Origin: Pinibacter soli
Lineage (GTDB): Bacteria; Bacteroidota; Bacteroidia; Chitinophagales; Chitinophagaceae
Length of the DNA stretch: 64,000 bases
Assembly: GCF_029961145.1 (NCBI RefSeq)
Contig: NZ_JASBRG010000007.1
Span: 598,155 to 662,154, forward strand
Reading direction: 5' to 3'
The notes under the pieces were generated by a model. That model made no database searches and was not told the DNA's origin. It saw only the letters and a program-made list of their open reading frames with translations. Both the position numbers and the translations under genes were made by a program. Below are positions 31,044 to 62,984 of the stretch, piece by piece (within the stretch, counting starts at the first letter, position 1; each line of letters opens with the position of its first letter).

Positions 31044-32957
31044 ATGAACATCCCAACCCTTTTTGCCAGTTATTGGTGGATAGCACTGATACTGATCTTT
31101 ATCCTGTTCTACAAGTTCATTTTACGAATGTTCTTCGGTATGGTAATCGTACCGGAAAACCGAATTGGATTGGTTACAAAAAAATTCGTGTTAGTGGGTG
31201 CCAACCGTGGCCTGCCAGACGGACGCATCATCGCCACAAAAGGTGAAGCCGGTTTCCAGGCGCAAACCCTCGCTCCCGGTCTTTACTGGGGCATGTGGCC
31301 ATGGCAGTACGGTGTCGAAATGCAACCCTTCATGATAATTCCGGAAGGCAAGATTGGCCTTGTGTTGGCAAACGACGGTGCGCAATTGCCTACAGGTAAC
31401 ATCCTTGGTCGCACAGTGGACAGCGATCACTTCCAGGATGCTGAGAAATTCCTTAGCAATGGTGGTCAGAAAGGTAGGCAGACAGCGCTGCTGACTGCAG
31501 GTACATATCGTATCAACAGCTATGCGTTCACTGTGACTATCGCCGACATGACCATCATCCATGAAAACAAAGTGGGTATCGTTACAACGCTGGACGGTGT
31601 GCCAATTAAAGCCGGACAAATCGCCGGTGAGCAAATTGAAGGTCACAACAACTTCCAGGACGTTGATGCCTTTTTGGTAAACGGAGGTAATCGTGGTCTG
31701 CAACCGCAGGTAATGCTGGCCGGTAGCTACTTTATCAACCAGTGGGCGATCCAGATCGAGGAGATACCAATGACCAACGTACCGATCGGTCAAGTAGGTG
31801 TTGTGATCTCTTACATCGGTGAAGATGGTAAGGATATGACGGGTGATACTTTTAAACATGGTAACATCGTAAGCAAAGGTTTCCGTGGTGTGTGGATGGA
31901 GCCGTTAGGTCCGGGCAAATATCCTGTTAACACTTATACGATGAAAGTTGAATTGGTACCAACGACCAACCTTGTGTTGAACTGGGCAAATGCGAGAAGT
32001 GAAGCGCATGACCTTGATAAAAATTTAAGTACGATCACTGTTCGTTCAAGAGACGGTTTCCCTTTTAATCTTGACGTGGCACAGATCATTCACGTTCCTG
32101 CGAATGAGGCCCCAAAAGTGATTGCACGATTCGGTAGCATGACTAACCTTGTGTCGCAAGTGCTGGAACCAACAATTGGTAACTATTTCCGTAACAGTGC
32201 GCAGGACAGCGATGTGATCAGTTTCTTAAGCACTCGTAAGGAGAGACAGAAGTCTGCAAGGGAACACATCAAAGAAGTGCTTGACGAGTACAACGTAAAC
32301 GCCGTGGATACTTTGATCGGAGACATTGTTCCTCCGGAAGCATTGATGAAAACCTTAACGGACAGAAAGATCGCGGAAGAGGAACAAAAAACCTATCAAA
32401 CGCAAAAGATGGCGCAGGAACAAAGACAGGGTATGGAAAAAGAAACGGCGATTGCAGACATGCAGAAAGAGATCGTAAAAGCGCAGCAAAGTGTTGAGAT
32501 CGCTCAACGCACCGCAGATGCGGCCGTTAAGAAAGCTGAGGGTGATGCGACTAGTTTGAAACTGCAGGTAAACGCAGAATCTGAAGCCACCAAAATGCGT
32601 GCAAATGCAGAAGCGGAAGCTACAAAAGCAAGAGCCGGTGCACAAGCCGAAGCGACAAAGATAAACGCCAGCGCCGATGCTGAAAAGATCAGTAAAACAG
32701 GTTTGGCGGAAGCTGAAAAAATCATGGCGATTGGTAAGTCTACCGCTGAAGCATATGAGTTGCAGGTTAAAGCCATGGGTGGCGACAACTTTACCAAATA
32801 TAAGATCACCGAGGAAATTGGTAAAGGCAACATCAAGATCATCCCTGACCTGATCGTAAGTGGTGGAAATGGCAGCGATGGAAGCTTGAGTGGATTGATG
32901 GGGTTGCAGTTGCTGCAGATGTTGAAGGAAAATAAGCAAGCTAATGGCAATAATTAA
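31044..32957 (+). CDS. SPFH/band-7 (flotillin-like, YqiK family) membrane protein
   Basis: N-terminal TM helix, SPFH domain, and a long Ala/Glu/Lys-rich coiled coil (AEAEATKARAGAQAEATKINASADAEK) typical of bacterial flotillins. The ORF is open from 30972. Confidence 0.8.
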   Translation: MNIPTLFASYWWIALILIFILFYKFILRMFFGMVIVPENRIGLVTKKFVLVGANRGLPDGRIIATKGEAGFQAQTLAPGLYWGMWPWQYGVEMQPFMIIPEGKIGLVLANDGAQLPTGNILGRTVDSDHFQDAEKFLSNGGQKGRQTALLTAGTYRINSYAFTVTIADMTIIHENKVGIVTTLDGVPIKAGQIAGEQIEGHNNFQDVDAFLVNGGNRGLQPQVMLAGSYFINQWAIQIEEIPMTNVPIGQVGVVISYIGEDGKDMTGDTFKHGNIVSKGFRGVWMEPLGPGKYPVNTYTMKVELVPTTNLVLNWANARSEAHDLDKNLSTITVRSRDGFPFNLDVAQIIHVPANEAPKVIARFGSMTNLVSQVLEPTIGNYFRNSAQDSDVISFLSTRKERQKSAREHIKEVLDEYNVNAVDTLIGDIVPPEALMKTLTDRKIAEEEQKTYQTQKMAQEQRQGMEKETAIADMQKEIVKAQQSVEIAQRTADAAVKKAEGDATSLKLQVNAESEATKMRANAEAEATKARAGAQAEATKINASADAEKISKTGLAEAEKIMAIGKSTAEAYELQVKAMGGDNFTKYKITEEIGKGNIKIIPDLIVSGGNGSDGSLSGLMGLQLLQMLKENKQANGNN

Positions 32958-33354
32958 TAATTAATAGGTGCGGCAGCGAGACAATAATCCCTACTCTAAT
33001 CTTGAAACCTTGCGGTTGCTTTTTCCAGAATAGCCCCTGTGAACGCAAGTGTTTATCATGTAGTAAACATTAGCCCCTAAATCCCCTTACCCAAGCCGGC
33101 AGCAATGCCGGCTTTTTTTAATTAATAATTAATAAGTACTGTTGCAAATGATATCTGCAAACTCAAAGTTCTCAAAATTGCAACTCTGTGCCGCTGCCCC
33201 GTCCATCTATATTCAAATGCTGAAGTGTGCGACGCAACGATGTTCACCTGAATTACCGATGCACACCTAACAAACAACGATGACCACATCTTTAGTTTGT
33301 TAAATTAAATAACGAATACAGCTCTATTAATTCTTAATTATTAATTATTAATTG
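32949..33354. repeat. Composite AATTAAT-armed element(s) overlapping the flotillin stop codon, with an embedded terminator
   Basis: Arms aataattaataattaatagg (32949-), aattaataattaataag (33120-33137) and tattaattcttaattattaattattaattg (33325-33354). The internal terminator is aagccggcagcaatgccggcttttttt. Confidence 0.55.
33094..33120 (+). terminator. Rho-independent terminator after the flotillin gene
   Basis: gccggc-agcaat-gccggc stem followed by T7. Confidence 0.65.
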
Positions 33355-33414
33355 TTTCTCACCCTGCCGACGGAATGAAGTTTGAAGTTATAGTTTGAAC
33401 AAAACTCATGGCAT

Positions 33415-33609
33415 ATGAAAAACGACAATAAGTTCCGGGTAAAGGATGAAAAACAGCCTACTTTACCGAATGAAGATTTTGAAGGTGAAGACAAAGCTCC
33501 TGGTGAAGAACAAGGCATGTCCGAACTAGTAACAGAACGAGATATTAAAGGCAAAAAGAACGACGGTGATCCTGAGTTAGAGAGCGATCAACCGGTGAAA
33601 CAACAATAA
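33415..33609 (+). CDS. Small acidic hypothetical protein (64 aa)
   Basis: Hydrophilic, charged ORF. Its stop TAA is overlapped by the AACTGAAT repeat arm. Weak support. Confidence 0.3.
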   Translation: MKNDNKFRVKDEKQPTLPNEDFEGEDKAPGEEQGMSELVTERDIKGKKNDGDPELESDQPVKQQ

Positions 33610-33688
33610 CTGAATAACTGATTAACTGAATAACTGAGTGGTCGAATGCTGAAGTGCATGATCGGATAGCTACCACTCAGTTATTCAA
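33605..33688. repeat. AACTGAAT-armed inverted-repeat element
   Basis: ataactgaataactgattaactgaataactgagtggt ... accactcagttattcaat. Confidence 0.6.
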
Positions 33689-33689
33689 T

Positions 33690-33722
33690 AAAAAAGGACA
33701 GTCCTAAGAGCTGTCCTTTTTA
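33690..33722. terminator. Bidirectional rho-independent terminator
   Basis: aaaaaaggacagtcctaagagctgtccttttt: a 6-8 bp stem with an A-run upstream and a T-run downstream. Confidence 0.65.
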
Positions 33723-34615
33723 TCACCAATAACCAACAAACTGCGATGAGGTTAATTTTCCATTGCTGAAAAATAGAATCCCTCCTCACTTAAAACAAAA
33801 CCAGTAGAGACATAGAAAAATAATGAACGATGCATGATATCTTTTGCAGCCTGTAAATATGAACCCCCTAATTCCGGAGTTCGTTGAGCATATTTCACGC
33901 TTTGTATTTTTAATAATCCGATCTGGCTATTGTATCTTACTTGAATCTCTTTCATTTGAAAATCGGCAGCCAGTTCCGCTTGTGAGTTTGTTAGAATAGC
34001 GTCCATAACGAGATATTGGTTTTAAATAGAATATTAATATTAGAACGTATGTTTTTTCAAAAAATTGTTTAAATAAAAAACCACGGTAAAACACGTTTTC
34101 AGCGTCGTACCATGGTTAATAGATGTGAGATGCGAGGTCTCCGTTGTATATGTATATGTTTACACTTACATATTAGCAGTTTTTAATAAATCATTTGCTT
34201 TTCTTCGGCTATGCATTGCTCTTTTTCAGCTACTTAAAAGAATGCCCGTGCTGAAATCGTTTCGCGGAATAAATAATGTGCCGGATCCCTCTGCTGCGGT
34301 CCATTACGCTTAAACTTCCGTTTTCTTCGCCGTTTTTTAGCCTTTTTATAAAATAATAAGAAGCGGCTCCGGCAGCGATAGCGCCTAAAGCTATGGCTGG
34401 AATTATTTTTCTTTTTTTCATAAATTTTCTTTAGTTATTAATAATCAATTCATATGCCGCGCCAAATGTGGTTTACAGTCTGTTTGCCAGCGGATGTTTT
34501 TACATTAAAAATCAATGCTTTTTGATAATAGTTGCTTTAGGCAATTTTTTATTTTCAGGGTTATACATTAAAATTGCACGACACTAAAACCGTTTTTGGT
34601 ATATAATAATATAGT

Positions 34616-37216
34616 ATGGCAAAGAATTTACTGATTGTGGAGAGCCCGGCAAAAGCTAAAACCATTGAAAAAATCCTGGGGAAAGATTTCGAGGTGAAGA
34701 GCTCTTTTGGTCATATTCGTGACCTGGAGAAGGACGATATGGGGATTGACATAAACAATAATTTTCAACCTAGATATATAGTTCCCGAAGATAAAGAGAG
34801 AGTGGTTCGCGACTTGAAGAGCCTTGCGAAGAAAGCCGATGAGGTTTGGCTCGCTTCGGATGAGGACCGCGAAGGTGAAAGCATCAGCTGGCACTTAGCG
34901 GAAGTTCTCGGCCTGGATCCTAAAACCACCAAACGTATTGTTTTCAACGAGATTACTGCACCTGCCATCAGAAAAGCGGTGCAAAATCCCCGCACCATAG
35001 ATATGAACCTGGTAGATGCGCAGCAGGCCCGCCGCGTACTCGACAGGATCGTAGGTTTTGAATTGAGCCCTGTGCTGTGGAGAAAGATCGGTATGCAGCG
35101 TAGTCTGAGTGCCGGCCGTGTACAAAGTGTGGCGGTAAGATTGATCGTGGAAAGAGAAAGAGAGATTAACCAGTTTAGCGCAGTAAGCAGCTATAAAATC
35201 GATGCCTATTTTGTAGCAAACGATATAACAGGCAAGAAAGTAACTTTCAAGGCAGAGGGCCCCTCAAAAATTGATAGCGCCCAGGATGCACAAAAGTTCC
35301 TGGAAAGCTGCAAAGGGGCCAACTATACGGTTACGGACATTACCGTAAGGCCAACCAAACGTTCTCCTGCCGCACCTTTTACCACTTCAACACTACAACA
35401 GGAAGCGAGCCGGAAACTGGGTTATGGTGTAAGCCGTACAATGTTACTCGCACAGCGTTTATACGAAAGCGGTAAGATAACGTATATGCGTACTGACAGT
35501 GTGAACCTTAGCGACACCGCGATGGGCGAAATCAGAAACGAGGTTACAAGCAGCTACGGAGCTAAATACCACCAGCCACGTAAATACAAGAACAAAAACG
35601 AAAGTGCACAGGAAGCGCACGAAGCGATACGACCCACTTATATGGAAAACCATACTGTGGATGATCCCGATGCAAAACGTTTGTATGAGCTGATCTGGAA
35701 ACGTACCATTGCATCGCAAATGAGCGACGCCGAGTTTGAAAAGACTACAGCTAAAATTGACATTTCTACCAATAAGGATACACTAACCGCAACCGGCGAA
35801 GTGATGAAGTTTGACGGCTTCCTGAAAGTGTACCTTGAAGGAAAAGACGAGGAAGACGGTGATGACGAAAACGACAGCATCCTGCCTCCATTGCAGGTAA
35901 AACAGCAACTTGAATTTAAAGAGATGCTGGCCGCCGAAAGGTATACCCGCCCTGCACCACGTTACACAGAAGCATCGCTTATCAAAAAACTAGAGGAATT
36001 GGGTATTGGCCGTCCGAGTACGTACGCCCCGACAATTTCTACCGTCCAAAAAAGAAATTACGTCGAGAAACGCGATAAAGACGGCGTTTTAAGACAACTG
36101 AATATTCTTCATCTCGATAAGAAGAACGATATCTCTAAAGAAACTAAAACCGAGACCACCGGTGCAGAAAAAGGAAAGCTGTTCCCTACCGATCTGGGTA
36201 TGCTGGTAACCGACTTTTTAAAGCAGCATTTTAAAACGGTAATGGACTACGGTTTTACGGCTGAAATAGAAAGCGACTTTGATAAAATTGCCGAAGGCAA
36301 AATGAAGTGGAATAAAATGATAGATGAATTCTATTCGCCATTTCATAACAGTATAGAAGTAACACTTGAAACAGCAGAAAGAGCAAAAGGTGAACGTGAA
36401 TTGGGTGTTGAATCTGCAAGCGGCAAACAAGTAATTGCACGTATGGGGCGTTATGGCCCAATGGTGCAAATTGGTAGCGCCGACGACGAAGAGAAACCTC
36501 GTTTTGCACGCCTGAAATCCAATCAAAGCATCGAGACCATTTCATTTGACGAGGCAATGGATCTCTTTAAACTACCACTTACATTGGGTGAGTTTGAAGG
36601 AAAAGAAGTATCGGTAAACGTTGGCCGCTTTGGTCCTTATGTAAAATGGGGTGAAGACTTTATCTCCATTCCAAAAGGCGAAGATCCGCTAACTGTTGAT
36701 ATGGACAGAGCAATGGCCATTATTAACGTAAAACAGGTTGCTGATGCTCCTATCGCTTCTTATGAAGGCAAGCCAGTTACAAAAGGCAAAGGTCGTTTTG
36801 GTCCGTTCATTAAGTGGAACGACATTTTTATTAACGTACCAAGAGCCTACAATTTCGATACGCTTACACAGGCGCAATGCGAGGAACTGATCCAAAAGAA
36901 AATGGAAAAAGAGGCCAACCGTTATATACAACAGTGGCCGGAAGAAAAGATTTCTATTGAAAATGGTCGCTGGGGCGCATTCATACGCTTCCAAAAGAAA
37001 ATGTTGAAGCTGGGCAGAAAGGCTGATGGCACAAAATATAGTGAAGAAGAAGCGGCAGCCATTTCATTGGAAGATGTAAAGAAAATGATCGTAGAGCAGG
37101 TACCTAATGCTTTTGCAAAGAAAGCTGCCGCAAAGAAAACCGCAGCGAAAAAAACGGCCGCCAAGACTGCCACTAAAAAAGCAGCACCGAAGAAGGCCGC
37201 GCCAAAGAAAAAATAG
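34616..37216 (+). CDS. topA: DNA topoisomerase I with a Lys/Ala-rich histone-H1-like C-terminal tail
   Basis: TOPRIM (LLIVESPAKAKTIEKILG...ASDEDREGE), an active-site Tyr region, and C-terminal Zn-ribbon-like repeats. Tail is KKAAAKKTAAKKTAAKTATKKAAPKKAAPKKK. Confidence 0.95.
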   Translation: MAKNLLIVESPAKAKTIEKILGKDFEVKSSFGHIRDLEKDDMGIDINNNFQPRYIVPEDKERVVRDLKSLAKKADEVWLASDEDREGESISWHLAEVLGLDPKTTKRIVFNEITAPAIRKAVQNPRTIDMNLVDAQQARRVLDRIVGFELSPVLWRKIGMQRSLSAGRVQSVAVRLIVEREREINQFSAVSSYKIDAYFVANDITGKKVTFKAEGPSKIDSAQDAQKFLESCKGANYTVTDITVRPTKRSPAAPFTTSTLQQEASRKLGYGVSRTMLLAQRLYESGKITYMRTDSVNLSDTAMGEIRNEVTSSYGAKYHQPRKYKNKNESAQEAHEAIRPTYMENHTVDDPDAKRLYELIWKRTIASQMSDAEFEKTTAKIDISTNKDTLTATGEVMKFDGFLKVYLEGKDEEDGDDENDSILPPLQVKQQLEFKEMLAAERYTRPAPRYTEASLIKKLEELGIGRPSTYAPTISTVQKRNYVEKRDKDGVLRQLNILHLDKKNDISKETKTETTGAEKGKLFPTDLGMLVTDFLKQHFKTVMDYGFTAEIESDFDKIAEGKMKWNKMIDEFYSPFHNSIEVTLETAERAKGERELGVESASGKQVIARMGRYGPMVQIGSADDEEKPRFARLKSNQSIETISFDEAMDLFKLPLTLGEFEGKEVSVNVGRFGPYVKWGEDFISIPKGEDPLTVDMDRAMAIINVKQVADAPIASYEGKPVTKGKGRFGPFIKWNDIFINVPRAYNFDTLTQAQCEELIQKKMEKEANRYIQQWPEEKISIENGRWGAFIRFQKKMLKLGRKADGTKYSEEEAAAISLEDVKKMIVEQVPNAFAKKAAAKKTAAKKTAAKTATKKAAPKKAAPKKK

Positions 37217-37333
37217 GAGAATTTGAAAATTTGAAGATTTGAAAATGGTTGGTGCTAGTCTCTAACACGCCTGAGTGACTTCAGTCGGGCAGGAACTAAG
37301 AACTTCGAACCAACAACTATCAACTAATTAAAC

Positions 37334-37918
37334 ATGGAACGCATTACTCAGGTAAAAGAGATCATTCAATCATCAATTGATACAAAACAGCAAATTCTAC
37401 AGGATCAGGCAATGCTTGAAAGAATGCTGGAAGTTGTTGATGCCATCGTAAACGCATTTCAAAACGGTAAACGCATTTATTTTTGTGGAAATGGTGGTAG
37501 TGCTGCAGACGCACAACACCTCGCTGCCGAGTTCAGCGGACGTTTTTATAAAAACAGGCGAGCATTACCTGCTGAAGCACTGCATTGCAATACCTCATAC
37601 TTGACAGCCGTAGCAAATGATTACAGCTATAACGATATTTATTCTCGCCTCGTTGACGGCATCATGGTGAAAGGCGATGTATTGATCGGTCTTTCTACAT
37701 CAGGCAATTCAGCCAACATAGTAAGTGCATTTGAAGTTGCGAGAGAGAAAGGCGTCATCACCGTTGGCTTCACTGGCATTACCGGCGGCATCATGCATTC
37801 ATTAAGTGATTATTTATTCAATGTACCATCTTCCATAACACCACGCATCCAGGAAAGCCATATTACCATAGGGCATATTATTTGTGAGCTGGTGGAAGAG
37901 AAATATTTCTCAATTTGA
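37334..37918 (+). CDS. gmhA: D-sedoheptulose-7-phosphate isomerase (SIS domain)
   Basis: FCGNGGSAADAQHLAAEF...GLSTSGNSANIV are GmhA SIS motifs. Confidence 0.85.
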   Translation: MERITQVKEIIQSSIDTKQQILQDQAMLERMLEVVDAIVNAFQNGKRIYFCGNGGSAADAQHLAAEFSGRFYKNRRALPAEALHCNTSYLTAVANDYSYNDIYSRLVDGIMVKGDVLIGLSTSGNSANIVSAFEVAREKGVITVGFTGITGGIMHSLSDYLFNVPSSITPRIQESHITIGHIICELVEEKYFSI

Positions 37919-38085
37919 AAATTTGAAAATTTGAAAATTCGTTTGGTGTATCATTCATGATTTATTGTTGGCAACCCAAGAGGCTGATAATTATTGATAA
38001 CAAATGTTCGGCCTAAAGCATTTTCAAATTCTCAAATCTTCAAATTTTCAAATTGCATCTCTCATTTTCATATTTTCAAATCATG
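37913..38085. repeat. TGAAAAT/TTTCAAA repeat tract between gmhA and gmhB
   Basis: tttgaaaatttgaaaatttgaaaattcg ... gcattttcaaattctcaaatcttcaaattttcaaattgcatctctcattttcatattttcaaatc. Confidence 0.55.
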
Positions 38086-38634
38086 TCTTTCACCCTTTCC
38101 GATATAGATAAAAACTGGACACTATTCCTGGACCGTGATGGTGTTATCAACCATGAAAAAGTGGAGGACTACATTTATCATTATGGAGAGTTTACTTTTT
38201 ATAAAGGGGCTATAGAGGCTATCAAAATACTTGCTCAGAAATTTCCACGAATCATTTTAGTGACCAATCAAAAAGGTGTTGGCAAGGGGTTGATGACAGA
38301 AGAAAGTCTACAGGATATTCATAAAAACATGCTGGAAGAAATAACAATAGCCGGCGGCCGCATCGACTCTATTTATTATTGCATTGCTTTGGATAGCAGT
38401 CACTCCCACCGCAAACCTAATCCCGGCATGGCTTTCCAGGCGAAGCAGGATTTTCCCGAAATTGATTTCTCCAAATCATTGATGGTGGGCAACAACATCA
38501 GCGATATGGAATTTGGAAGAAATGCGGGTATGCGCACAGTATTTGTAAAAACGACAAAGCCTGAACAAGTACTTCCCCACCCTGCTATTGATTTTGCGTT
38601 TGATGACCTGCTGGATTTTGCGAAGGCTCTGTAA
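38083..38634 (+). CDS. gmhB: D,D-heptose 1,7-bisphosphate phosphatase (HAD-IIIA)
   Basis: LFLDRDGVIN (HAD motif I)...LVTNQ...GNNISDMEFG. The ORF is open from 38053. Confidence 0.8.
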   Translation: MSFTLSDIDKNWTLFLDRDGVINHEKVEDYIYHYGEFTFYKGAIEAIKILAQKFPRIILVTNQKGVGKGLMTEESLQDIHKNMLEEITIAGGRIDSIYYCIALDSSHSHRKPNPGMAFQAKQDFPEIDFSKSLMVGNNISDMEFGRNAGMRTVFVKTTKPEQVLPHPAIDFAFDDLLDFAKAL

Positions 38635-38683
38635 TTACTATCCCATTACCTGATGACCATCTTTAAAAGCTTGCCTTTTTTAG

Positions 38684-40522: not shown

Positions 40523-40533
40523 ACATACGATGT

Positions 40534-41320: not shown

Positions 41321-41575
41321 ATTTCACGCAAAGGCGCAAAGGGTATTTTTTCGTGCGGAGAAACTGAGTTGTTTCACACAGCGAACGCAGCGAATAAGCG
41401 ACGCAAAGAGTTCGCGAACGTCGGAATGTTATTTTAGGTTTTAAACAGATTGATGTGCACCTGATAAGAAAATTGCAGACCTAAACCAACAAGCTCCTGC
41501 CGCGCCGCCGCTTCATTGCGGTGACCGCGAGAAGTCTTTGCGTCCTTTGACTTTCCTTTGCGCCTTTGCGGGAAA
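41321..41575. repeat. GCAAAGG-armed inverted-repeat element, second copy of the family
   Basis: atttcacgcaaaggcgcaaagggtat ... gtctttgcgtcctttgactttcctttgcgcctttgcggg. Confidence 0.6.
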
Positions 41576-41623
41576 TTTTGCTAACTTCAGCGCTGAAACA
41601 TCTCTGACCACAAATAACGTGAC

Positions 41624-48809: not shown

Positions 48810-50126
48810 ATGAATGTGTCCCCTTTCATTAAAAAAGGTGTTGCAATTACTTGTACTCTTTTCATATGCGGCTATTCATTTTCCCAAAACCTTACATTGG
48901 AAGATGCCGTAAACATTGCGTTAAAAAATAGCCTTGATATACAGCTCGCTAAAAACAATGTAACCGTTAACGATATCAACAATTACATTGGCATCGCCGG
49001 AGGATTGCCGGTAATATCAGGGACGGCGACTGACGCAGAGCAGCTTTCCAACATTAATCAAAAGTATGCAGATCCGAAGCGTGATGTTGAAAAAAGAGGC
49101 GTTGCCACTAACAACCTTAGTGGAAACATACAAGCAAGCTATTTGTTATTTAACGGAATGCGTGTTGTTACGACCAGGAAAAGACTAAACGAATTGCTCA
49201 ACCAAAGTAAGGAGCAATTGAACTCACAGGTTCAAAACATCATCGCTTCAGTGATGACATCTTACTATGATGTCATTCGTCAGCAGAACTATATCAAAAC
49301 GATAGATCAATCACTAGTTGTATCTCAGCAAAAGCTCGACATCGTTAAAACACAACAGGCAGTTGGGATGGCAAACAATGCAGATCTGTTCCAGGCACAA
49401 GTAGATTATAACACGCTTTTACAATCGCACCAGTCACAGCAACTGGCAATTGACCAGGCTAAAACGGAATTGCTACGGTTACTTACCTTAAAAGCAGATT
49501 CTGTCATTACTATTTCAGATACTATTTTGGTGGATCATTCACTTGTATTGGGAACCGTTTTGGACAATCTTCCTAACAACCCTGATTTACGGGCGGCAGA
49601 GGACCAGGTGAGGATCAATGAATTTATCGTAAAAGAAACAGCGGCGCAGCGCTATCCTTCCCTGCGTTTGAATGGCGGTTACAGCTTCGTGTACAATAGC
49701 AGCGCCGCGGGTGACACCCGCTTGAACAACAGCTACGGTCCAACCATTGGCGTTGGGGTTGGCGTTCCTATTTACAATGGTTCTATATATAAACGGCAAC
49801 AAAAAATTGCAGAAATGAATGTTAACTCTGCAGAACTCAGTAAAGACATTATCGTAAGAGATTATTCTGCGAACATCATCAAAACATACCAGGCCTACAC
49901 TAGCACATTAAAGCAACTTGAAACGCAAAGAAAAAACTACGAGTTGTCAAAACAATTGGTTGATCTGATACTTCAAAAATTCCAATTGCACCAGGCAACT
50001 ATTATTGACGTAAGAACGGCACAACAAAGTTTTGAACTTGCAGGCTATAGCCTTATCAACTTGAGCTTCTCCGCCAAATCAGCAGAGATCGAATTGAAAA
50101 GAGTGAGCAATCAATTGAAACCATAG
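48810..50126 (+). CDS. TolC-family outer membrane efflux protein
   Basis: Signal peptide, then the TolC-like repeat structure (LTLEDAVNIALKNSLDIQLAKNN...). The ORF is open from 48723. Confidence 0.85.
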   Translation: MNVSPFIKKGVAITCTLFICGYSFSQNLTLEDAVNIALKNSLDIQLAKNNVTVNDINNYIGIAGGLPVISGTATDAEQLSNINQKYADPKRDVEKRGVATNNLSGNIQASYLLFNGMRVVTTRKRLNELLNQSKEQLNSQVQNIIASVMTSYYDVIRQQNYIKTIDQSLVVSQQKLDIVKTQQAVGMANNADLFQAQVDYNTLLQSHQSQQLAIDQAKTELLRLLTLKADSVITISDTILVDHSLVLGTVLDNLPNNPDLRAAEDQVRINEFIVKETAAQRYPSLRLNGGYSFVYNSSAAGDTRLNNSYGPTIGVGVGVPIYNGSIYKRQQKIAEMNVNSAELSKDIIVRDYSANIIKTYQAYTSTLKQLETQRKNYELSKQLVDLILQKFQLHQATIIDVRTAQQSFELAGYSLINLSFSAKSAEIELKRVSNQLKP

Positions 50127-50147
50127 TTAGTGCAGCGTTCGGAAATA

Positions 50148-50279
50148 GAAATTAATAATTAACAATTAATAGGTGTAGCATCTGGATAAGAACACTGCTT
50201 AACTATGTTCGACATACAATAGGGCAACATTCTGTCGTGAATGTTGCCCTATTAATTTTTAATTATTAATTATTAATTT
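50148..50279. repeat. AATTAAT-armed element with a conserved-structure hairpin-terminator core
   Basis: Left arm gaaattaataattaacaattaatagg. Then ggtgtagca plus about 45 nt. Then a perfect hairpin agggcaacattc-tgtcgt-gaatgttgccct. Then the right arm attaatttttaattattaattattaatt. Paralogous copies at 62853-62984, 52254-52390 and 51585-51677. Confidence 0.7.
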
Positions 50280-50285
50280 CCCGCA

Positions 50286-51065
50286 ATGCTTCCACATGAA
50301 CTCATCCTTCTTTGTTGCGCGGCTTTTGCGGCGGGTTTTATCGATGCTATTGTAGGCGGAGGCGGACTTGTACAAACGCCTGCAACACTGATCATTTTGC
50401 CGCAATATCCTGTTGCTACATTATTGGGCACTATAAAAATTCCTTCATTTTCCGGCACCAGTATTGCAGCATGGCAATATACAAGACGTGTAAAGCTTGA
50501 TATGCGCTTGCTGGCAGGCGTATCAATCTGTGCCTTTTTTGCGGCACTGTTCGGCTCAGCCATGGCCAGCAAATTAAGCAATGCTGTTTTTAAACCTGTC
50601 ATATTAATATTGCTGATTGGCGTTGCCATCTATACGTATAGTAACAAAAAATTCGGGCAAAGCGAACATGAGTTAAAGGAAACAAAAAATGCGCTGGCCT
50701 ATGGCATTTCATTTGGCCTCCTGCTAGGTTTCTATGATGGCTTCATCGGTCCGGGAACAGGTAGTTTTCTTATTCTCCTCTTTGTAAGTGTATTAGGTCA
50801 GGACTTTCTGCATGCCAGCGCTTACGCGAAAATCATTAACCTTGCCACGAATTGTGCATCGATCATCTACTTCAGCAGCACCGGTCATATTTTGTATCAT
50901 TATGCAATCCCCATGGCGGTATTTAATGTTTGCGGCTCATTCGTTGGTGCGAGGCTAGCCTTGCTAAAAGGTAATCGTTTTATACGCATCGTCTTTTTAA
51001 TCGTGGTAACGGGCATGATCATACGTTTTGCGTGGGATGTAGCGAAGCTGGCGATAAGAGGTTAG
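50286..51065 (+). CDS. Sulfite exporter TauE/SafE-family (TSUP) membrane protein
   Basis: Two 4-TM repeats each with Gly-rich motifs (AAGFIDAIVGGGG...; GFYDGFIGPGTGSFL). Confidence 0.8.
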   Translation: MLPHELILLCCAAFAAGFIDAIVGGGGLVQTPATLIILPQYPVATLLGTIKIPSFSGTSIAAWQYTRRVKLDMRLLAGVSICAFFAALFGSAMASKLSNAVFKPVILILLIGVAIYTYSNKKFGQSEHELKETKNALAYGISFGLLLGFYDGFIGPGTGSFLILLFVSVLGQDFLHASAYAKIINLATNCASIIYFSSTGHILYHYAIPMAVFNVCGSFVGARLALLKGNRFIRIVFLIVVTGMIIRFAWDVAKLAIRG

Positions 51066-51584
51066 CTGCTAGTTATTGGTTATTAGCCATCAATTTTGAC
51101 TAGCGGAGACTAAAGCAGAACAACCAACAATCCACTAAGTGTATCCCCTTAGATCCGAAAAATTTTCTTCAATAAAATTGGATTATATTATTTTGACATT
51201 TAATTTAACATATCCATAGCAGTTAGACTGCTTTTAAACCTTCTCCTTAGTTAACAAAGATGTAATACACAAACTGAACATTTCGTTGAAAGTTTCAAGA
51301 TATTTGCATTGTCAAGTTACAATATCCAATTAGAAAAAAACCAATAGTCCATTAGTCCAAAAAACCGAGTCCACGTCCAATGAACAAACAAGCATCACAA
51401 CCTTTTCTATGAAGTAATTATCCACCAATCCATGTGAAGACCAGGTAATATATCCGATCCTAGCAGTCAAGATTTATCCACCTTTATTATATTACCTAAT
51501 TTTAAAAAAGCTGTTCTAACGAACGGCTTTTTTTATTCTTAGTAACTGAATAACTGAGTTTTCAAGTCAAGATGTTCGAAAAAA

Positions 51585-51677
51585 AATTAATAATTAATAA
51601 TTAAAAATTAACAGGGCATTGTCGATTATAATTTTGAGGGCAACACTATTAATTCTTAATTATTAATTATTAATTGA
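51585..51677. repeat. AATTAAT-armed element, degenerate copy
   Basis: aaaaattaataattaataattaaaaattaacagggcattgtcg...gagggcaacactattaattcttaattattaattattaattg. Confidence 0.55.
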
Positions 51678-51855
51678 ATTGGTGCCAGGCGTTATCAGAC
51701 ATTCATTTTATAAAGCAAGTCTGACACTTACCTGGACTTAGTTATTTGTATTGGATGTTTTCGTTTTTGCCCATGCAAATTTATCAATCCTTGTACCACG
51801 CAGTATTAAGGAGTAGTTAACTTAGCGTTGTTGAATTGATTTTAACAAAATCAAT

Positions 51856-52173
51856 TTATGACTCCAGACCCTTATCATCAAAGAGAGCGAGTATCTGTTG
51901 TGATTTAATTTCTGTGTCGGCATTCTGCAGCATACAATGCAGATGCATCAGTTCTTTTTCAGTTAAAACAATGTGGACAATATTACCCGGTGTAGGAAGA
52001 ACGATATATTTCAACTTATCATCAATGGGAACAAGCGTTTCACAACGCGCCGTTACTAACTCAATAAAAGTTTCGAAATTATTTTTATCAAGTATCAGCA
52101 TCGTTGTGCCAAATGTTACCTGGTAAATGTTACAAGCATGATCGTCAAAATGCCATGATTTGAAATTGCACAT
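51856..52173 (-). CDS. Hypothetical protein (105 aa)
   Basis: ORF only. Confidence 0.35.
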   Translation of the reverse strand: MCNFKSWHFDDHACNIYQVTFGTTMLILDKNNFETFIELVTARCETLVPIDDKLKYIVLPTPGNIVHIVLTEKELMHLHCMLQNADTEIKSQQILALFDDKGLES

Positions 52174-52253
52174 ATTGGAAGTTTATGGTGCAAATGAAAT
52201 ACGGAGTGTTGAGAGATCGGTTATAGATTAGGGAATTCGGTTTGCGAGAGAGA

Positions 52254-52390
52254 AAAATTAATAATTAAGAATTAAGAATTAATAGTGTGCATTCGAAATC
52301 ATAGTCGCCGTTCATGACTAGTCAAAAAAATAGGGAATCATCGAATAAACGACTGATGCCCTATTAATTTTTAATTATTAATTATTAATT
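52254..52390. repeat. AATTAAT-armed element with a bidirectional terminator hairpin
   Basis: aaaattaataattaagaattaagaattaatagtg...aaaaaaatagggaatcatcgaataaacgactgatgccctattaatttttaattattaattattaatt. Ends 4 bp before the stop of the MFS gene. Confidence 0.65.
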
Positions 52391-52393
52391 ACC

Positions 52394-53653
52394 TCAATGT
52401 CTCACCGCCACCGCTTCACTCGCCACATGTTTATGTTTGAAAAATACGGCGAACAAAACCGCTACGATTAAGGCATATATAGAGAATGCCATCCAGATGC
52501 CGTGCCAGTTCTTGGTACCGTCCATTGAAGTGTAGTATTCCTGAATTATAAATCCGCTAATGGTACTTCCTGCAACGGCTCCTACTCCATTTGTCATCAT
52601 CATAAACATTCCCTGTGCACTTGACCTGATATGAGGTGTAGTGGACGTTTCCACAAATAGCGAACCGGAAACGTTGAAGAAATCGAATGCCATTCCATAA
52701 ACAATGCAGGACAAAATAATAAGACTTACTCCAACCGGTGAAGGATCGCCATACGCAAACAGCCCAAACCTGAACACCCAGGCCAGCATACTTATAAGCA
52801 TAACATTCTTAATACCAAAGCGTCTCAGGAAAAATGGAATCGCAAGAATGAAAGCTGTTTCAGAAAACTGAGAGATAGACATGATGATGGTTGACCTTTT
52901 CACCACGAATGAATTCGCATATTCGGGAACCTTACTGAACTCGCCCAGAAAAACGTCTCCATAAGCATTCGTCAGTTGCAACGCCGCTCCAAGAAACATG
53001 GAGAAAATAAAGAAGAGCGCCATTTTCTTATCCTTGAATAAAGCCAAAGCATCAAGACCCAATATCTGTCCCCAACTCTTTTTCCCGGTTTGTTTACCCA
53101 ATGGCGGACATGCCGGCAACGTAAATGAATACAGGCCCAGTATAAACGATGCTATTGCTGCGATATAAAATTGGTTGGCAGACGCCTTATTTCCGCTGAG
53201 ATTGGTGGTCCACATTGCTGCTATGAAGCCTATAGTTCCAAAAACACGAATTGGCGGAAAGTCAAGCACTACATCAAACTGGTTATTTTTTAACCCGGTA
53301 TAACCTATGGAATTGGCAAGCGCTATGGTAGGCATGTAGAAAATCATAGCCAATAAGATTCCCCAAAAAAACTGAGAAGGATCATTGATCTGCGGGATCA
53401 GGCATAAGGACATACCGCTTAATACGTGGAGAAATCCGTACAGTTTCTCGGCATTCACCCAGCGATCCGCCACCACTCCCATCAATGCCGGCATAAATAA
53501 GGATGCGATTCCCATTGTTGAAAAAATAACTCCAAACTTTCCTCCATCCCATCCTTTTGTGCTAAACCAGTAATTGCCAATTGTGATTAGCCATGAACCC
53601 CAAACAAAAAATTGCAGGAAACTCATTATCGTCAGGCGGAACTTAATACTCAT
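52394..53653 (-). CDS. MFS transporter, nucleoside:H+ symporter (NupG/XapB-like) family
   Basis: 12 TM helices. N-terminus MSIKFRLTIMSFLQFFVWGSWLITIGNYW is typical of the NHS family. Confidence 0.75.
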   Translation of the reverse strand: MSIKFRLTIMSFLQFFVWGSWLITIGNYWFSTKGWDGGKFGVIFSTMGIASLFMPALMGVVADRWVNAEKLYGFLHVLSGMSLCLIPQINDPSQFFWGILLAMIFYMPTIALANSIGYTGLKNNQFDVVLDFPPIRVFGTIGFIAAMWTTNLSGNKASANQFYIAAIASFILGLYSFTLPACPPLGKQTGKKSWGQILGLDALALFKDKKMALFFIFSMFLGAALQLTNAYGDVFLGEFSKVPEYANSFVVKRSTIIMSISQFSETAFILAIPFFLRRFGIKNVMLISMLAWVFRFGLFAYGDPSPVGVSLIILSCIVYGMAFDFFNVSGSLFVETSTTPHIRSSAQGMFMMMTNGVGAVAGSTISGFIIQEYYTSMDGTKNWHGIWMAFSIYALIVAVLFAVFFKHKHVASEAVAVRH

Positions 53654-55117: not shown

Positions 55118-55135
55118 AAGTAAAAAATAAAAAGT

Positions 55136-55171
55136 AAAAAGGGAGCCCGGCTTACATCGGGCTCCCTTTTT
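55136..55171 (+). terminator. Rho-independent terminator for the mqn gene
   Basis: aaaaagggagcccg-gcttacatc-gggctcccttttt. Confidence 0.75.
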
Positions 55172-55228
55172 ACTTTGAGGCTTTAAGAAAGTTTTGAGTA
55201 GTAAAACCCTCATAACGTTTATCAAATA

Positions 55229-55262
55229 AAAAAGCGTTCGATACATTTCGAACGCCTTTTTA
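55229..55262 (-). terminator. Rho-independent terminator for the 55285-57615 gene
   Basis: Minus strand: aggcgttcgaaatgtatcgaacgctttttt. Stem gcgttcga/tcgaacgc. Confidence 0.7.
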
Positions 55263-55284
55263 TTTTTTATTTTTTACTTATTCG

Positions 55285-57615: not shown

Positions 57616-58015
57616 ACCAAAAATTTTATAAGCATTAATAGGGACACAGGACGTGGATAAAGTTAAATTTTGGTTTTTTTACTAGGAAATTTGAAGCTGC
57701 TACAAAATACAATTTTTTGACCTACATCAAAATAGTTGAATTTTTATTTTACCCGTCGTAAACAATAAAAATCAATAGAAAAGTGTCAAACCGTGTAATG
57801 GTGACGCAAAAAAACAACAATTCATGTAAATGTTATTGTTTGGTTACGACAATATTTTTACAGTGGGTATTTTCAACTTTCCCAGCAACACAATACCCAC
57901 ATCTTAAATTCATCGAATCACAAGCTCCCATAAAAAAGCATACCCCTGTTAAAGGATATGCTTTATAAGTTGGAAAGGTTTAATGCCTAATCAGTATTAA
58001 TAAATGTTACACCGA

Positions 58016-58408: not shown

Positions 58409-58592
58409 AGTGTTTATTTTTCACATTAAGAGAATAGAAAACGTCGTTTCCAAGACAGTACGGGTAAATAAAACAGGAGACTATAGCCGGCAAATCGTTA
58501 TTGTAAATGTTGTATGTAAATCTAGAAACTAAAGTGTGATAATTTGGTTAAACAGGCCGGTTTAACAATAGGTTTTACTAAGTTAATAAATC

Positions 58593-59808: not shown

Positions 59809-61493
59809 TTCTTTTCACTCGTAGATATTACCGGTGCCGGATCCGTTGGCAAATATGGCGGCGCACCCTTTCGATTGTTATTCAACGTGTCCATAATGGC
59901 CGGCAGATAAGCCATAAACAATATGATCGCCATAGCTATGAGCCACGGACGGAAAGTATCGAATATGGGTATCCGTTTTTCTGTATGATAAACTTCACTA
60001 ACCGGAAAATCAATAACAGGCTCTGCCGTGCGTTTGCTAAAAAATGTGCCGAAGAAAACGACGAAATACAACAGTCCCGCAGTGAACATAATACCGCCGC
60101 CTGCAAGACCGAGCATTGTTGTGATCACCCAATAGGGATTGTACAATTCGCTTTCAGGATTGAGATAAGTGAGCCCAAGATTCGTTCTGCGCGGTTCGCC
60201 CAAAAGCCCACCCCACATGAGTCCTGTAGAGAAAATCAAAACGCCCACTGTCCATAAATAAGGAACGATTGTATTGATCTTTGGTAGAAAAATTTTCTTA
60301 CCTGTAAGTTGTGATGTCATGAAAATCGACATACCCAATATCGCCAGAAACACCGGTCCGGCAACAGTTAGGTGAAAGTGCCCCGGCACCCACGCCGTGT
60401 TATGAATAACGTTATTGAGCGAATAAGATGCGTTCACCAAACCTGTCAATCCACCAAAAATAAATAGTATCAAACCATTGATGAGATAGCCAAACAGGTA
60501 AACATTTTTATCGAAGAAAGGAAGTTTCCAAACCCAGTTCCACAAACCCTTTGCGCCTCTTTTCCTTCCTGCGTACTCAAGCGAAGCGGCAATGGTAAAA
60601 GCTGTGATAAAACTCGGAATGGCAACGCCAAATGTGAGAATACCTTGGGTAAGCTTGATGCCTCTTCCAATAGCGGGATCGCCAAACTGGTGATGCACCC
60701 CTATGGGAATCGACAATAACAAGAACACAAAAAAAGCAATGCGACCGGCAAGCTCAGAGTATAATTTGCCACCGGCTACTTTTGGTAAAATGGTATAGAA
60801 CATAATGTAAGCCGGTAACAACCAGAAGTATACTAATGCATGTCCGAAAAACCAGAACAATGTTCTTGTAAGCGAAACGTTGACTGTAGGCGTCCAACCC
60901 ATGGACCACGGAATTAGCAGGACGAGCACTTCGTACGCAACCGCCAGTGTACAAACAAACCATATGGTGAAGTTGATAAGGGTTCCCAAAACAGCCAGTG
61001 GCGTGTTTACTTCGCGATTATCTTTTTTCCATTTTAAATAAATGGTTACCCAGTCAAAAAATGCAACCCATGAACCAACAATAAGCAGAGCAGTTCCAAG
61101 ATAAAACAACGGGTGCGCTTTTAACGGAGCATAAAACGTATATAACACAGAAGCCTTGCCCGCAAGCATTGCCCACGCAGCCATTAATGTTCCACCTACC
61201 ATTAAACACAGTGACAACATGGAGGCTTTATAGTTCGGTTCTCTTTTTAAATGAAAGGCAACTGTGGCATGGCCAAATGCTACCGCAAAAAAAGTAGTCA
61301 GCACGATCGCATTGATCACGCCGTGCAAGGTTAATCCCTGGTAATAATCAAGTTTTGCAAATGAAGACTGGTGAATAACTCCCGCCCTGTATATTACCTG
61401 CATCAAGCCATGATAAATGCCGATGGTCAGCAACAAAACAGGAACAAAAAGCTCTATGAGAATAATGTTTCTAATAGGTTTACTTATGTGCAT
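59805..61493 (-). CDS. Heme-copper oxidase subunit I, B-family (ba3-like)
   Basis: 562 aa polytopic protein. His ligand regions (FGHALVYFWLLPAYIMFYTILPK; NTAWVPGHFHLTVAG). Confidence 0.8.
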   Translation of the reverse strand: MHISKPIRNIILIELFVPVLLLTIGIYHGLMQVIYRAGVIHQSSFAKLDYYQGLTLHGVINAIVLTTFFAVAFGHATVAFHLKREPNYKASMLSLCLMVGGTLMAAWAMLAGKASVLYTFYAPLKAHPLFYLGTALLIVGSWVAFFDWVTIYLKWKKDNREVNTPLAVLGTLINFTIWFVCTLAVAYEVLVLLIPWSMGWTPTVNVSLTRTLFWFFGHALVYFWLLPAYIMFYTILPKVAGGKLYSELAGRIAFFVFLLLSIPIGVHHQFGDPAIGRGIKLTQGILTFGVAIPSFITAFTIAASLEYAGRKRGAKGLWNWVWKLPFFDKNVYLFGYLINGLILFIFGGLTGLVNASYSLNNVIHNTAWVPGHFHLTVAGPVFLAILGMSIFMTSQLTGKKIFLPKINTIVPYLWTVGVLIFSTGLMWGGLLGEPRRTNLGLTYLNPESELYNPYWVITTMLGLAGGGIMFTAGLLYFVVFFGTFFSKRTAEPVIDFPVSEVYHTEKRIPIFDTFRPWLIAMAIILFMAYLPAIMDTLNNNRKGAPPYLPTDPAPVISTSEKK

Positions 61494-61500
61494 GATCGGA

Positions 61501-61953
61501 TTATTTTGTGGGATAGTTAACGATTACTTCGGCCTGCATGTTCTGGTGGCCGGTGCCACAGAATTCGTGACAGGTTATTTTGTATACGCCGGGTTTGTCA
61601 AACTTCACGGTTGTTTTCGCTACGGCGCCCTGTACGCCCATCAGGTTCACATTTTTCTCAGATATATCAAAGCCATGCACCACATCTTTTGATGTAACAA
61701 AAAAATCAACCTCACTGCCTACAGGAATGTAAACCACAGAAGGCTCGAAGTTCCACATGCGGGCAACATAAAAGATTTGGTAAGTGTTCTTATCTACCTG
61801 GTTCACCCTTGCATCTTCATATGATTTATCGTAAGGAAGGCATTCGGTCACATCTCCTTTTTTGGCGCCCATAGCATACAGAAGGCTAAATATGAACAGC
61901 GCCGATACCAGCAACGCCACTCCGATTACTGTTCTTTCAAATTTATCCAGCAT
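61501..61953 (-). CDS. Cytochrome c oxidase subunit II, cupredoxin CuA domain
   Basis: CuA motif HGFDI...CHEFCGTGHQNM, with a single N-terminal TM helix. The ORF is open to 62004. Confidence 0.8.
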   Translation of the reverse strand: MLDKFERTVIGVALLVSALFIFSLLYAMGAKKGDVTECLPYDKSYEDARVNQVDKNTYQIFYVARMWNFEPSVVYIPVGSEVDFFVTSKDVVHGFDISEKNVNLMGVQGAVAKTTVKFDKPGVYKITCHEFCGTGHQNMQAEVIVNYPTK

Positions 61954-61964
61954 AATAAATTGTT

Positions 61965-62093
61965 TTAGCTGCGGTAAAGCATAATAAAATATATGGTAAA
62001 CCAAATAATAAGGCCCAAAGCAACGAGCAGGGCAAAGAAAGCAACAGCGCCTCGGGGGACAAATTTTTCAGGCAGGTCTTGATTAGAATCCAT
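61965..62093 (-). CDS. Small single-TM peptide upstream of subunit II; possible ba3-type subunit IIa
   Basis: Own translation gives MDSNQDLPEKFVPRGAVAFFALLVALGLIIWFTIYFIMLYRS, 42 aa. It is missing from the ORF track, which only lists ORFs of 60 aa or more. It sits where subunit IIa sits in B-type oxidase operons. Confidence 0.4.
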   Translation of the reverse strand: MDSNQDLPEKFVPRGAVAFFALLVALGLIIWFTIYFIMLYRS

Positions 62094-62335
62094 AAGTAAG
62101 TTTTAAATTTTGAGTTCTTAGTTTTGACTTTTATAAGCCCTAAAACCAGTATCGGTATCCGATAATTGTACATTTTATTTTGGCTAAATTGCAACGCGAA
62201 TCGACTCCCCGTTTGACAGTAACAAAAAACCTCCCGAACAGTTCACAGTTTTTCAATTTTTTCTCAAAAAGATTAACGGATATAATAAACCTAAAATTTA
62301 CTTATTTGGTTATATTGTTTTATAAAAACTAACCC

Positions 62336-62848
62336 ATGCTATCACAAACAATGCAAGAGGCCCTAAACAGGCAGGTACAACTGGAAGCCGAAAGTTCACA
62401 GGCATATCTGGCAATGGCCAGCTGGGCAGAGATACAACCGGGACTTGACGGCGTTACAAACTTCTTTTACACCCAGTCCGATGAGGAAAGAATGCACATG
62501 TTAAAACTGATCCGTTACATTAATGAACGCGGCGGTTTTGCGATCGTTCCCGCACTGGAGCAACCTATCATTACCTTTCTCTCCCTTCAACGTGTGTTCG
62601 AAGAGTTTTTAAAACATGAGATCATTGTTTCGACAAATATTAACGAGCTGGTGGGAATGGCGCTCACTGAAAGGGATTACGCCACACACAACTTCCTGCA
62701 ATGGTACGTGAATGAGCAGATTGAAGAAGAGCATCTCGCCAGAACCTTAAATGACAAGCTGGTACTTGTAGGCGAAGACAAAGGCGGCATTTATCTTTTT
62801 GACAGAGATATTATGTTGCACAGAGGAAATGAGGGGAAGAAGAGGTAG
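62336..62848 (+). CDS. Ferritin-like protein (bacterial non-heme ferritin)
   Basis: Ferroxidase-centre residues in LEAESSQAYLAMASWA...EERMHMLKLIRYINERGG...ERDYATHNFLQWYVNEQIEEE. Confidence 0.85.
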   Translation: MLSQTMQEALNRQVQLEAESSQAYLAMASWAEIQPGLDGVTNFFYTQSDEERMHMLKLIRYINERGGFAIVPALEQPIITFLSLQRVFEEFLKHEIIVSTNINELVGMALTERDYATHNFLQWYVNEQIEEEHLARTLNDKLVLVGEDKGGIYLFDRDIMLHRGNEGKKR

Positions 62849-62852
62849 GGAG

Positions 62853-62984
62853 CAATTAATAATTAAAAATTAATAGGTGTAGCACAGTGATGAGAGAATA
62901 GCATATCATCTGCTCTACAAACAACAGGGCCGCATTCACTCAAGAATGTGGCCCTGTTAATTATCAATTATTAATTATTAATTT
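62853..62984. repeat. AATTAAT-armed element with a hairpin core showing compensatory changes relative to 50148-50279
   Basis: gcaattaataattaaaaattaataggtgtagca ... agggccgcattc-actcaa-gaatgtggccct gttaattatcaattattaattattaatt. Compare agggcaacattc...gaatgttgccct in the 50.2 kb copy. Confidence 0.7.

Follow-up and report, generated by a model that had tools for sequence, protein, structure and literature searches.

An AATTAAT-armed intergenic element with a terminator-like hairpin at gene ends in Chitinophagaceae

Introduction

The Correia elements (NEMIS/CREE) of Neisseria are intergenic sequences of ~100-155 nt with inverted ends of ~26-31 bp, which are co-transcribed with their neighbours, fold into long hairpins, and have reported effects on termination and RNA processing. 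Eukaryotic Foldback transposons carry inverted arms of short tandem repeats around a heterogeneous middle, and the attC sites of integrons are imperfect inverted repeats of 57-141 nt with conserved ends and a variable centre that begin at or in the preceding stop codon. Here, an element that recalls all of these is described from a 64,000-nt stretch of Pinibacter soli DNA (contig NZ_JASBRG010000007.1, positions 598,155 to 662,154, forward strand), referred to below as the window. The element is ~135 nt long, with inverted AATTAAT-repeat arms at both ends and a hairpin inside. It is probably an old dispersed intergenic repeat with two distinct ends, resembling foldback elements, MITEs (miniature inverted-repeat transposable elements), and repetitive extragenic palindromic (REP) sequences, in which the hairpin would act as an intrinsic terminator for the adjacent gene. 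It is rated here as a variant of the MITE/REP-like intergenic repeats within a larger heptamer-armed superfamily.

With Correia elements and MITEs it shares its short intergenic nature and inverted ends, having 31-nt terminal inverted repeats on a short, non-coding, multi-copy unit. Unlike in those systems, the ends consist of four tandem heptamers, the core is variable, the orientation is biased with respect to genes, and a dozen sister families follow the same plan with different arm units; no TA or other target duplication, insertion polymorphism, or near-identical copies were found. Foldback transposons differ in being eukaryotic, in their kilobase arms, and in being known to transpose, and homology to the present element is not indicated. 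In place of the RYYYAAC and GTTRRRY ends of attC sites there are AATTAAT ends on scattered copies in all four gene-pair orientations, and no R/L core consensus, integrase, or one-directional cassette array was seen. An overview of MITEs is available (PMC3184786).

REP sequences, bacterial interspersed mosaic elements, and REPINs are abundant palindromic repeats of 3′ untranslated regions with proposed roles in termination and mRNA stabilisation, REPINs being hairpin-forming inverted doublets (PMC3116915, PMC3733652, PMC3333891). As in REPs, GTAG is present, here in a box close to one end (AGGTGTAGCA). However, REPs, which are linked to RAYT transposase genes, are palindromes rich in GC and 20-40 nt long whose stem has GTAG directly at its foot, whereas this box stands away from the conserved palindrome, which lies at the other end and starts with AGGGC rather than with a GTAG/CGTC tag, and AT-only heptamers in tandem make up the arms. 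No RAYT gene was found, although no search aimed at one was made. The closest published parallel is that of the TAACTGA heptamer arrays, direct intergenic arrays near gene ends in Beggiatoaceae, Cyanobacteria, and a few Bacteroidetes whose mechanism is unexplained (PMC4679880). As in these arrays and the cyanobacterial STRR sequences, the arms of the element consist of 7-nt intergenic units, and the window itself holds TAACTGA-type arms. Unlike the TAACTGA arrays, which are direct, variable in number, and mostly upstream of starts, its arms are inverted and in most ends fixed at four units, enclose a conserved interior, and lie mostly at stops.

Architecture and Distribution

The arm pattern AATTAATAATTAANAATTAAT, with up to three mismatches allowed, matched the window 18 times, compared with 0.08 matches expected from dinucleotide-preserving shuffles. 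Related sequences were sampled by scanning one genome per species with the right arm, which matched at least 99 loci. Among the matches listed, most loci come from Pinibacter aurantiacus MAH-26 and Chitinophagaceae bacterium 26-R-25, where the element is abundant; whole window elements are 72-78% identical to copies in these two genomes, both of which hold full-length copies, and the same loci are matched by several other repeat families of the window. Beyond these genomes, inverted arms were seen among the matches listed only in Bacteroides ndongoniae (locus L053) and Chitinophaga (locus L012), and no plasmid or phage carriers were found. Matches in other phyla are plain (ATTAATT)4-7 arrays in which the element is absent, as are five viral matches, and they have been rejected as the same element. 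A cyanobacterial origin, as an STRR or Nezha-type MITE, was likewise rejected, since among the matches listed whole elements match Pinibacter and Chitinophagaceae loci only; it is further disfavoured by a neighbouring TauE protein that is closest to those of Filimonas and Chitinophagaceae. At the gathering threshold, Rfam returned no match for the whole window, and at E values up to 5 the region 50100-52450 gave only chance-level matches to the terminator parts of small-RNA models. A literature search found no paper containing the arm sequence, and the family seems to be undescribed.

The window holds six copies and 450 kb of the two related genomes ~55; ~59 copies were compared. At the end termed B, the order is a 31-nt arm, (AATTAAT)4 plus AGG, then the hairpin GGGCnnCATTC-loop6-GAATGnnGCCC, a T-run, and GAACAT. 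The consensus of this end over ~59 copies is AATTAATAATTAATAATTAA[t/a/c]AATTAAT-AGGGCnGCATTC-loop6-GAATGCnGCCCT, after which come a T-rich run and GAACAT, and the hairpin stem reaches into the last arm heptamer. A variable core of ~25-30 nt leads to the A-end, where the box TGCyrCACC precedes the inverted arm (consensus TGCyrCACC-TATTAATT[c]TTAATTATTAATTATTAATT). The two arms are thus inverted repeats of each other, and most ends hold exactly four heptamers plus AGG, with one free position (N) whose base differs between A- and B-ends. Combinations of ends are A/B in 19 copies, A/A in one, and B/B in two. The length has a median of 135 nt and falls between 130 and 140 nt in 30 of 59 copies; 32 oriented copies align in a single register, with a consensus spanning ~80% of the length. 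The same 31-nt arm recurs at unrelated loci in different genera, and in each arm every one of the six reading frames meets a stop codon. Folded as a single strand, a whole element forms a stem of 21-28 bp between its arms, which encloses the GC hairpin (z -5 to -9 on both strands), with the fold energy coming mostly from the AT arms.

A canonical example in the window is the plus-strand copy at 50150-50278, which runs from A-end to B-end between the TolC stop (50126) and the start of a TauE/TSUP gene (50286) and folds with -45.8 kcal/mol (z = -8.2). Its A-arm AATTAATAATTAACAATTAATAGG (50150-50173, plus strand) shares its last three bases with the A-box AGGTGTAGCA (50171-50180). The B-end hairpin, AATAGGGCAACATTC-TGTCGT-GAATGTTGCCCTATT of 15 bp followed by AATTTTTAAT (50218-50253, plus strand), was flagged as terminator-like in a simple scan, and the B-arm CCTATTAATTTTTAATTATTAATTATTAATT closes the element at 50248-50278 (plus strand). 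A second canonical copy (62854-62983, plus strand) lies between convergent genes for ferritin (stop 62848) and a SET-domain protein (stop 62989), with its A-box at 62875-62884, hairpin at 62925-62956, and B-arm at 62953-62983. A sequence-only reading of this DNA had proposed at least five loci sharing one architecture and listed five; the features it described occur at all five, but only these two are canonical, the others being bulged, short, or composite. The mutually inverted arms, the two distinct ends, the membership in a larger superfamily, a degenerate sixth copy, and a solo arm go beyond that proposal.

Position at Gene Ends and the Proposed Terminator

Elements nearly fill their intergenic gaps and do so in a preferred way round: the B-end is turned toward stops by 24:8 and the A-end toward starts by 21:13 (Fisher p = 0.003), and for strong hairpins next to an arm the count in favour of stops is 14:2 (p = 0.002). 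Among 60 ends that face a stop, 52 are placed between -20 and +8 nt from it, and in 23 of these 60 (~38%) the stop codon falls within the arm. Gaps toward starts are typically 20-45 nt and form a G-poor leader; neither the A-end nor the arm showed a consistent match to TAnnTTTG/TTTG or sigma-70. The T-run is on the inner side of the stem. As in intrinsic terminators, including bidirectional ones, a GC-rich stem of 11-15 bp with a 6-nt loop and a U-run or T-rich tail stands after stops, downstream of and co-oriented with the gene, with A/T-rich sequence upstream. Unlike ordinary terminators, which do not form sequence families, the GGGCnnCATTC stem is conserved across loci and genera and is set between 31-nt inverted arms.

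The interpretation of the hairpin as a terminator is drawn from this stop-facing orientation, the position at stops, and the six-frame stops in the arm. Judged from sequence, hairpin and U-run would form a Rho-independent terminator for the gene reading into the B-arm, and between convergent genes termination could work both ways, because on the opposite strand the arm would provide a tail rich in U. Hairpins that face a gene end would be kept intact, with decay elsewhere, and the arm would supply an all-frame stop region to the adjacent gene, whose own stop it provides in ~38% of cases. The suggestion in the sequence-only reading that these modules are terminators has thus gained support from the orientation counts, the T-run, and the scan result at 50.2 kb.

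That reading had also stressed that hairpin pairing is kept although the sequence changes between copies, and this has been borne out in 21 hairpin-bearing copies from three genomes, aligned because they are foldable: changes on both sides were found in 8 of 15 hairpin pairs. Pair 13-33 shows all four Watson-Crick types (AU5/GC5/CG4/UA3), and the 50.2 and 62.9 kb hairpins differ by one double change, A-T to C-G, and one single change, A-T to G-T. Paired cells amount to 89% in the 21 hairpins, compared with 80% in shuffles and 37-50% with slid partners; choosing foldable copies inflates this percentage but not the number of double changes.

Arm Conservation and Turnover

Orthologous DNA of P. 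aurantiacus and 26-R-25 is ~90% identical, and the sampled share is ~5% of a genome. Identity in three retained orthologous element pairs is 96% for the arms, 74% for the interiors, and 86% for the flanks; when the arm selected by the search is excluded, arms at 92% are still more alike than interiors at 74% (p = 0.0004). Compensatory evolution between the two arms was considered and rejected, with three double changes against 8.6 expected and 91.2% of positions paired against 92.2% with shuffled partners. Since arm variants of one element do not compensate each other, what is constrained is arm sequence, together with spacing, and not arm-arm pairing. The earlier inference from covariation to selection on structure does not extend to the arms. 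Best supported is the view that something reading the sequence would keep the arms near their consensus. They are perhaps recognised by some factor; alternatively, slippage or conversion might keep them uniform, and they would then pair, if at all, only in read-through RNA.

Eight orthologous armed sites could be compared. Six retain the element, and two hold a wholly different element at the same boundaries, AATTAAT arms being exchanged for AATTAAG/AATTAGG arms in one case and GCTTAAC-type for AATAACTGA-type arms in the other; one orthologous arm differs in unit number, 5 versus 6. None of the eight sites is empty, a small sample, so that the presence/absence polymorphism sought in relatives was not seen between these two genomes. 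No target-site duplication was seen at the element flanks, although AT-rich ends could mask one of 2-4 nt and the test is weak; the flanks are C-poor on both sides. Near-identical copies within a genome are lacking, the best interior identity being 0.74 against a shuffled maximum of 0.65, and arm pairs 1-3 kb apart enclose no larger, coding (transposase) partner, being neighbouring elements. Propagation as a mobile module, which the sequence-only reading had offered as one possibility, is thus unproven for the AATTAAT element. The family may go back to an ancient dispersal from a common ancestor and would now be no longer visibly mobile.

A control from these genomes is an ordinary MITE of 75 nt, which shows a clean insertion with an 11-nt target duplication and thereby gives an example of true insertion polymorphism in these genomes. 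It was identified by comparison of L048:5376-5451 (Pinibacter) with L027:700-800 (26-R-25), is present in one species only, and has the ends GCCGYGGTTCGTGTC; its duplication reads AAGCCYAACA, and it landed within the arm of an AGTTGTT-armed element.

Several observations weigh against the overall interpretation. A good hairpin is lacking in about half of the copies, and divergent gene pairs, where a terminator is not needed, flank 10 of 58 copies. The 50.2 kb copy breaks the orientation rule: its hairpin end points toward the start of the next gene, 7 nt away, so that termination of the TolC transcript would have to act across the entire element, and no promoter is visible for the downstream gene. 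Within the 21 hairpins, G-U and A-C cells occur equally often (17 and 13) and give no strand signal, so the data do not tell which strand pairs, or whether pairing is at the RNA or the DNA level; a DNA-level palindrome or two-way use of the hairpin would be compatible with this equality, which further qualifies the earlier argument from covariation. With the search-selected arm excluded, arms do not differ significantly from coding flanks (p = 0.15). Finally, the relatives' loci were retrieved by exact match to one arm, and the conservation of that arm and the four-unit minimum are partly built into the sample.

Should the interpretation nevertheless be correct, a large share of the gene ends in these soil Bacteroidota would be set by a reusable module that brings an all-frame stop, a spacer, a terminator, and a second arm, and not by separately evolved sequence. 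Gene-end annotation would be affected, as ~38% of adjacent open reading frames (ORFs) stop inside an arm, and so would terminator prediction in Bacteroidota and metagenome assembly, where contigs break at these repeats. P. aurantiacus MAH-26 offers a cultured organism for testing why heptamer repeats accumulate and stay uniform in Bacteroidetes and Cyanobacteria. The puzzling features are arms conserved in sequence without a pairing constraint, the many arm types, replacement at orthologous sites without an empty site, and the tight placement at stop codons.

A Superfamily of Heptamer-Armed Elements

A survey of 512 kb of Chitinophagaceae DNA, in which the window served as the unbiased sample for gap occupancy, yielded 186 short inverted-repeat elements, most of them with arms of 3-5 tandem units of 7-9 nt belonging to at least 12 unit types. 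An armed element occupies 17 of the 53 intergenic gaps of the window and only 1 of 8 divergent gaps. The other arm families lie in convergent or tandem contexts in 53 of 54 cases, with a median gap of 2 nt to the stop and 43 nt to the start; their strong arm-adjacent hairpins do not face stops to a significant degree. An internal box common to all arm families was rejected, as the box GGTGyrrC occurs in some of them only weakly (8 of 150 ends), a 4-fold enrichment over the 1.3% of controls.

On Pinibacter contig 15, at 424-440 kb (loci L009 and L032), five ancient paralogues of ~800 aa, 27-46% identical, form a tandem array in which an armed element follows each of the first four genes and one stands just upstream, these elements being spaced ~2.55 kb apart. 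These five elements and the next one downstream turn an A-type end toward the start of the following gene, and two of the five belong to the AATTAAG subfamily.

A wider proposal, bold and rather unlikely to hold, would see in these observations a genome-wide punctuation system of Chitinophagaceae, in which at least 12 heptamer- or octamer-armed families occupy about one third of gaps, sit at stops, and are maintained by a sequence-directed process. The elements would end translation in every frame, carry a terminator, and be kept to their family consensus, either by a dedicated factor or by a repeat-writing or conversion mechanism. If so, the same process could explain the heptamer arrays of Bacteroidetes, Cyanobacteria, and Beggiatoaceae as well as the swaps of arm family without empty sites.

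Alternative Explanations

The element could instead be a purely selfish, non-autonomous MITE, its arms being transposase-bound terminal repeats, its hairpin and boxes transposition signals, and any terminator effect incidental. Inverted ends, a defined length, and conservation of sequence with no pairing compensation are as expected for protein-recognised repeats, and the dispersed copies with a common consensus, the at least 12 sister families, and the different arm family found at two of eight orthologous sites in species ~90% identical would fit as well. Against this stand the lack of a visible target-site duplication, of any presence/absence difference at the eight sites, of near-identical copies within a genome, and of a coding partner among paired arms. 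Moreover, orthologous sites keep their arms as the interiors diverge, the elements have a preferred direction with respect to genes, and a dozen arm families would require a dozen cognate transposases. Weighed together, these points leave a selfish MITE unlikely, if far from negligible.

Less favourably placed is the suggestion that the arms serve a host protein or recombinase as sites on the DNA, with a part in nucleoid organisation, insulation, an attC-like site, or an invertible switch; the heptamer sites would then form two sets of four, held at a constant distance of ~80 bp. Such a role would agree with a constraint on arm sequence rather than pairing, with the fixed arm length and the one free position that differs between ends, with a total length peaking tightly at 135 nt, with an element that, like the attC sites of integrons, begins at or within the stop codon, and with the one element after each gene of the Pinibacter paralogue array. 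It is nevertheless improbable, given that the GTTRRRY/RYYYAAC core is absent, no integrase or recombinase context and no inverted orthologous copy were seen, copies occur genome-wide beside housekeeping genes and in every gene-pair orientation, and the arm families are too different for one binder.

Growth of heptamer microsatellites around ordinary terminators, with arms as neutral, functionless products of slippage, would account for the plain (ATTAATT)4-7 arrays in many phyla, the heptamer arrays known in Bacteroidetes and Cyanobacteria (PMC4679880), the orthologous arm of 5 versus 6 units, and the window element at 55118-55279, in which the arm units are the A and U tracts of the terminator. 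It would hardly produce exactly four units plus AGG in most ends, two distinct ends with conserved boxes, a constrained length, or the same 31-nt arm at unrelated loci in different genera, and is quite improbable. A family of independently transcribed small regulatory RNAs, which the sequence-only reading had proposed and for which the stable folds (z -5 to -9 on both strands) and covarying hairpins could speak, is very improbable and has been set aside, as Rfam gives no match, the core varies, promoter-like sites show no enrichment, the fold energy is mainly that of the AT arms, and position and orientation are tied to the neighbouring gene ends.

Further Copies in the Window

The neighbours proposed from sequence, namely flotillin-like, TolC, major facilitator nucleoside permease, ferritin, and SET-domain genes, proved correct. 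Copies stand at operon ends, with none inside the RND/TolC operon, and the 50.2 kb copy follows the last gene of that operon. The copy at 52256-52390 (minus strand) turns its B-end toward the stop (52394) of the minus-strand nucleoside permease gene, with a 3-nt gap. Its hairpin (52332-52362) is imperfect and bulged (-14.7 kcal/mol), and it carries AGTGTGCA in place of GGTGYAGCA, the motif given earlier as following the left arm. An A-run noted before this hairpin is real (52324-52330) and is, on the minus strand, the U7 run that follows the hairpin in the predicted terminator of the permease gene.

A short copy of 91 nt (51585-51675, plus strand) runs from a B-like to an A-like end and has lost its hairpin and most of its interior. 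The locus at 32949-33353 (plus strand) is composite: an A-type end, AGGTGCGGCA (32949-32975), overlaps the flotillin-like stop at 32955-32957, and further along come an ordinary terminator at 33095-33119, part of an extra arm at 33120-33137, and an arm of B type at 33324-33353. The degenerate sixth copy at ~23105-23236 (plus strand) has AGGTGTAGCA in its left arm and a right arm of AATTAGA type, and the solo arm at 14212-14232 (minus strand), of AATTAAG/AATTAGG type, abuts the stop end of the ORF at 14220-14708 (minus strand).

The TauE/TSUP gene (50286-51065) is flanked by the 50.2 kb copy 7 nt upstream and by the 51.6 kb copy ~520 nt downstream, and its product is 72-78% identical to its closest relatives in Filimonas and Chitinophagaceae. 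In the Filimonas-like relatives (L100, L101, L103) the neighbours are different, with a radical SAM gene upstream, a hint that rearrangement boundaries are marked by armed elements. Relatives 76% identical are not syntenic. In Filimonas sp., three tandem units of ~180 nt, flanked by inverted CGTGAAT/CGTGAAA heptamer arms, lie upstream of the TauE orthologue (L101:3360-3955).

Other Repeats

The AGTTGAG unit, which forms an arm family separate from AATTAAT in Chitinophagaceae, is joined to it in the Firmicute Clostridium ragsdalei (32% GC), where (AATTAAT)5 runs straight into (AGTTGAG)n at L033:2860-2990. The element at 55118-55279 has AAAGTAAAAA arms, lies between convergent genes, and carries two terminator-like hairpins, one per arm. 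Elements with arms of CGCAAAGG-type units (TTTCACGCAAAGGTGCAAAGG...) are found at 17953-18130 and 41321-41576, with arms of 43 nt that are 95% complementary and 92 nt apart, and the family is present in Pinibacter loci too. An element of 294 nt at 18872-19165 has arms of 42 nt built from GCTGATTTA-type units, and its interior has TTCGAACATAC, a motif also found in the AATTAAT family. Another, of 120 nt, lies at 21397-21516; its 39-nt arms of CACTAAG units are 95% complementary, and it shows 72-95% identity to Pinibacter and 26-R-25 loci. The octamer-armed (A)TTTGAAAA family is represented at 4580-4771, 5234-5375, 9501-9550, 10464-10602, 37201-37250, and 37893-38090; the sub-terminal box GTGTATCATTC in some of its copies resembles the A-box of the AATTAAT family. 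Octamer arms containing TAACTGA (AATAACTG) occur at 19823-19911 and 33605-33690.

A tandem (CACTCAT)n array of ~10 units with no detected inverted partner lies at 29430-29503, directly before the stop end of the ORF at 29496-30203 (minus strand). The short perfect palindrome AGACAAGGCAATGCCTTGTCT, present in three copies (1753-1789, 1845-1872, and 12663-12699), looks like a REP and is unrelated to the heptamer arms. The GC-rich palindromic repeat TGTCATCCCGACGAAGGAGGGATCTG occurs in both Chitinophagaceae genomes (L034:3106-3196, L010:3042-3135, L085:7667-7758, and L088:1466-1554) and forms a separate, REP-like family.

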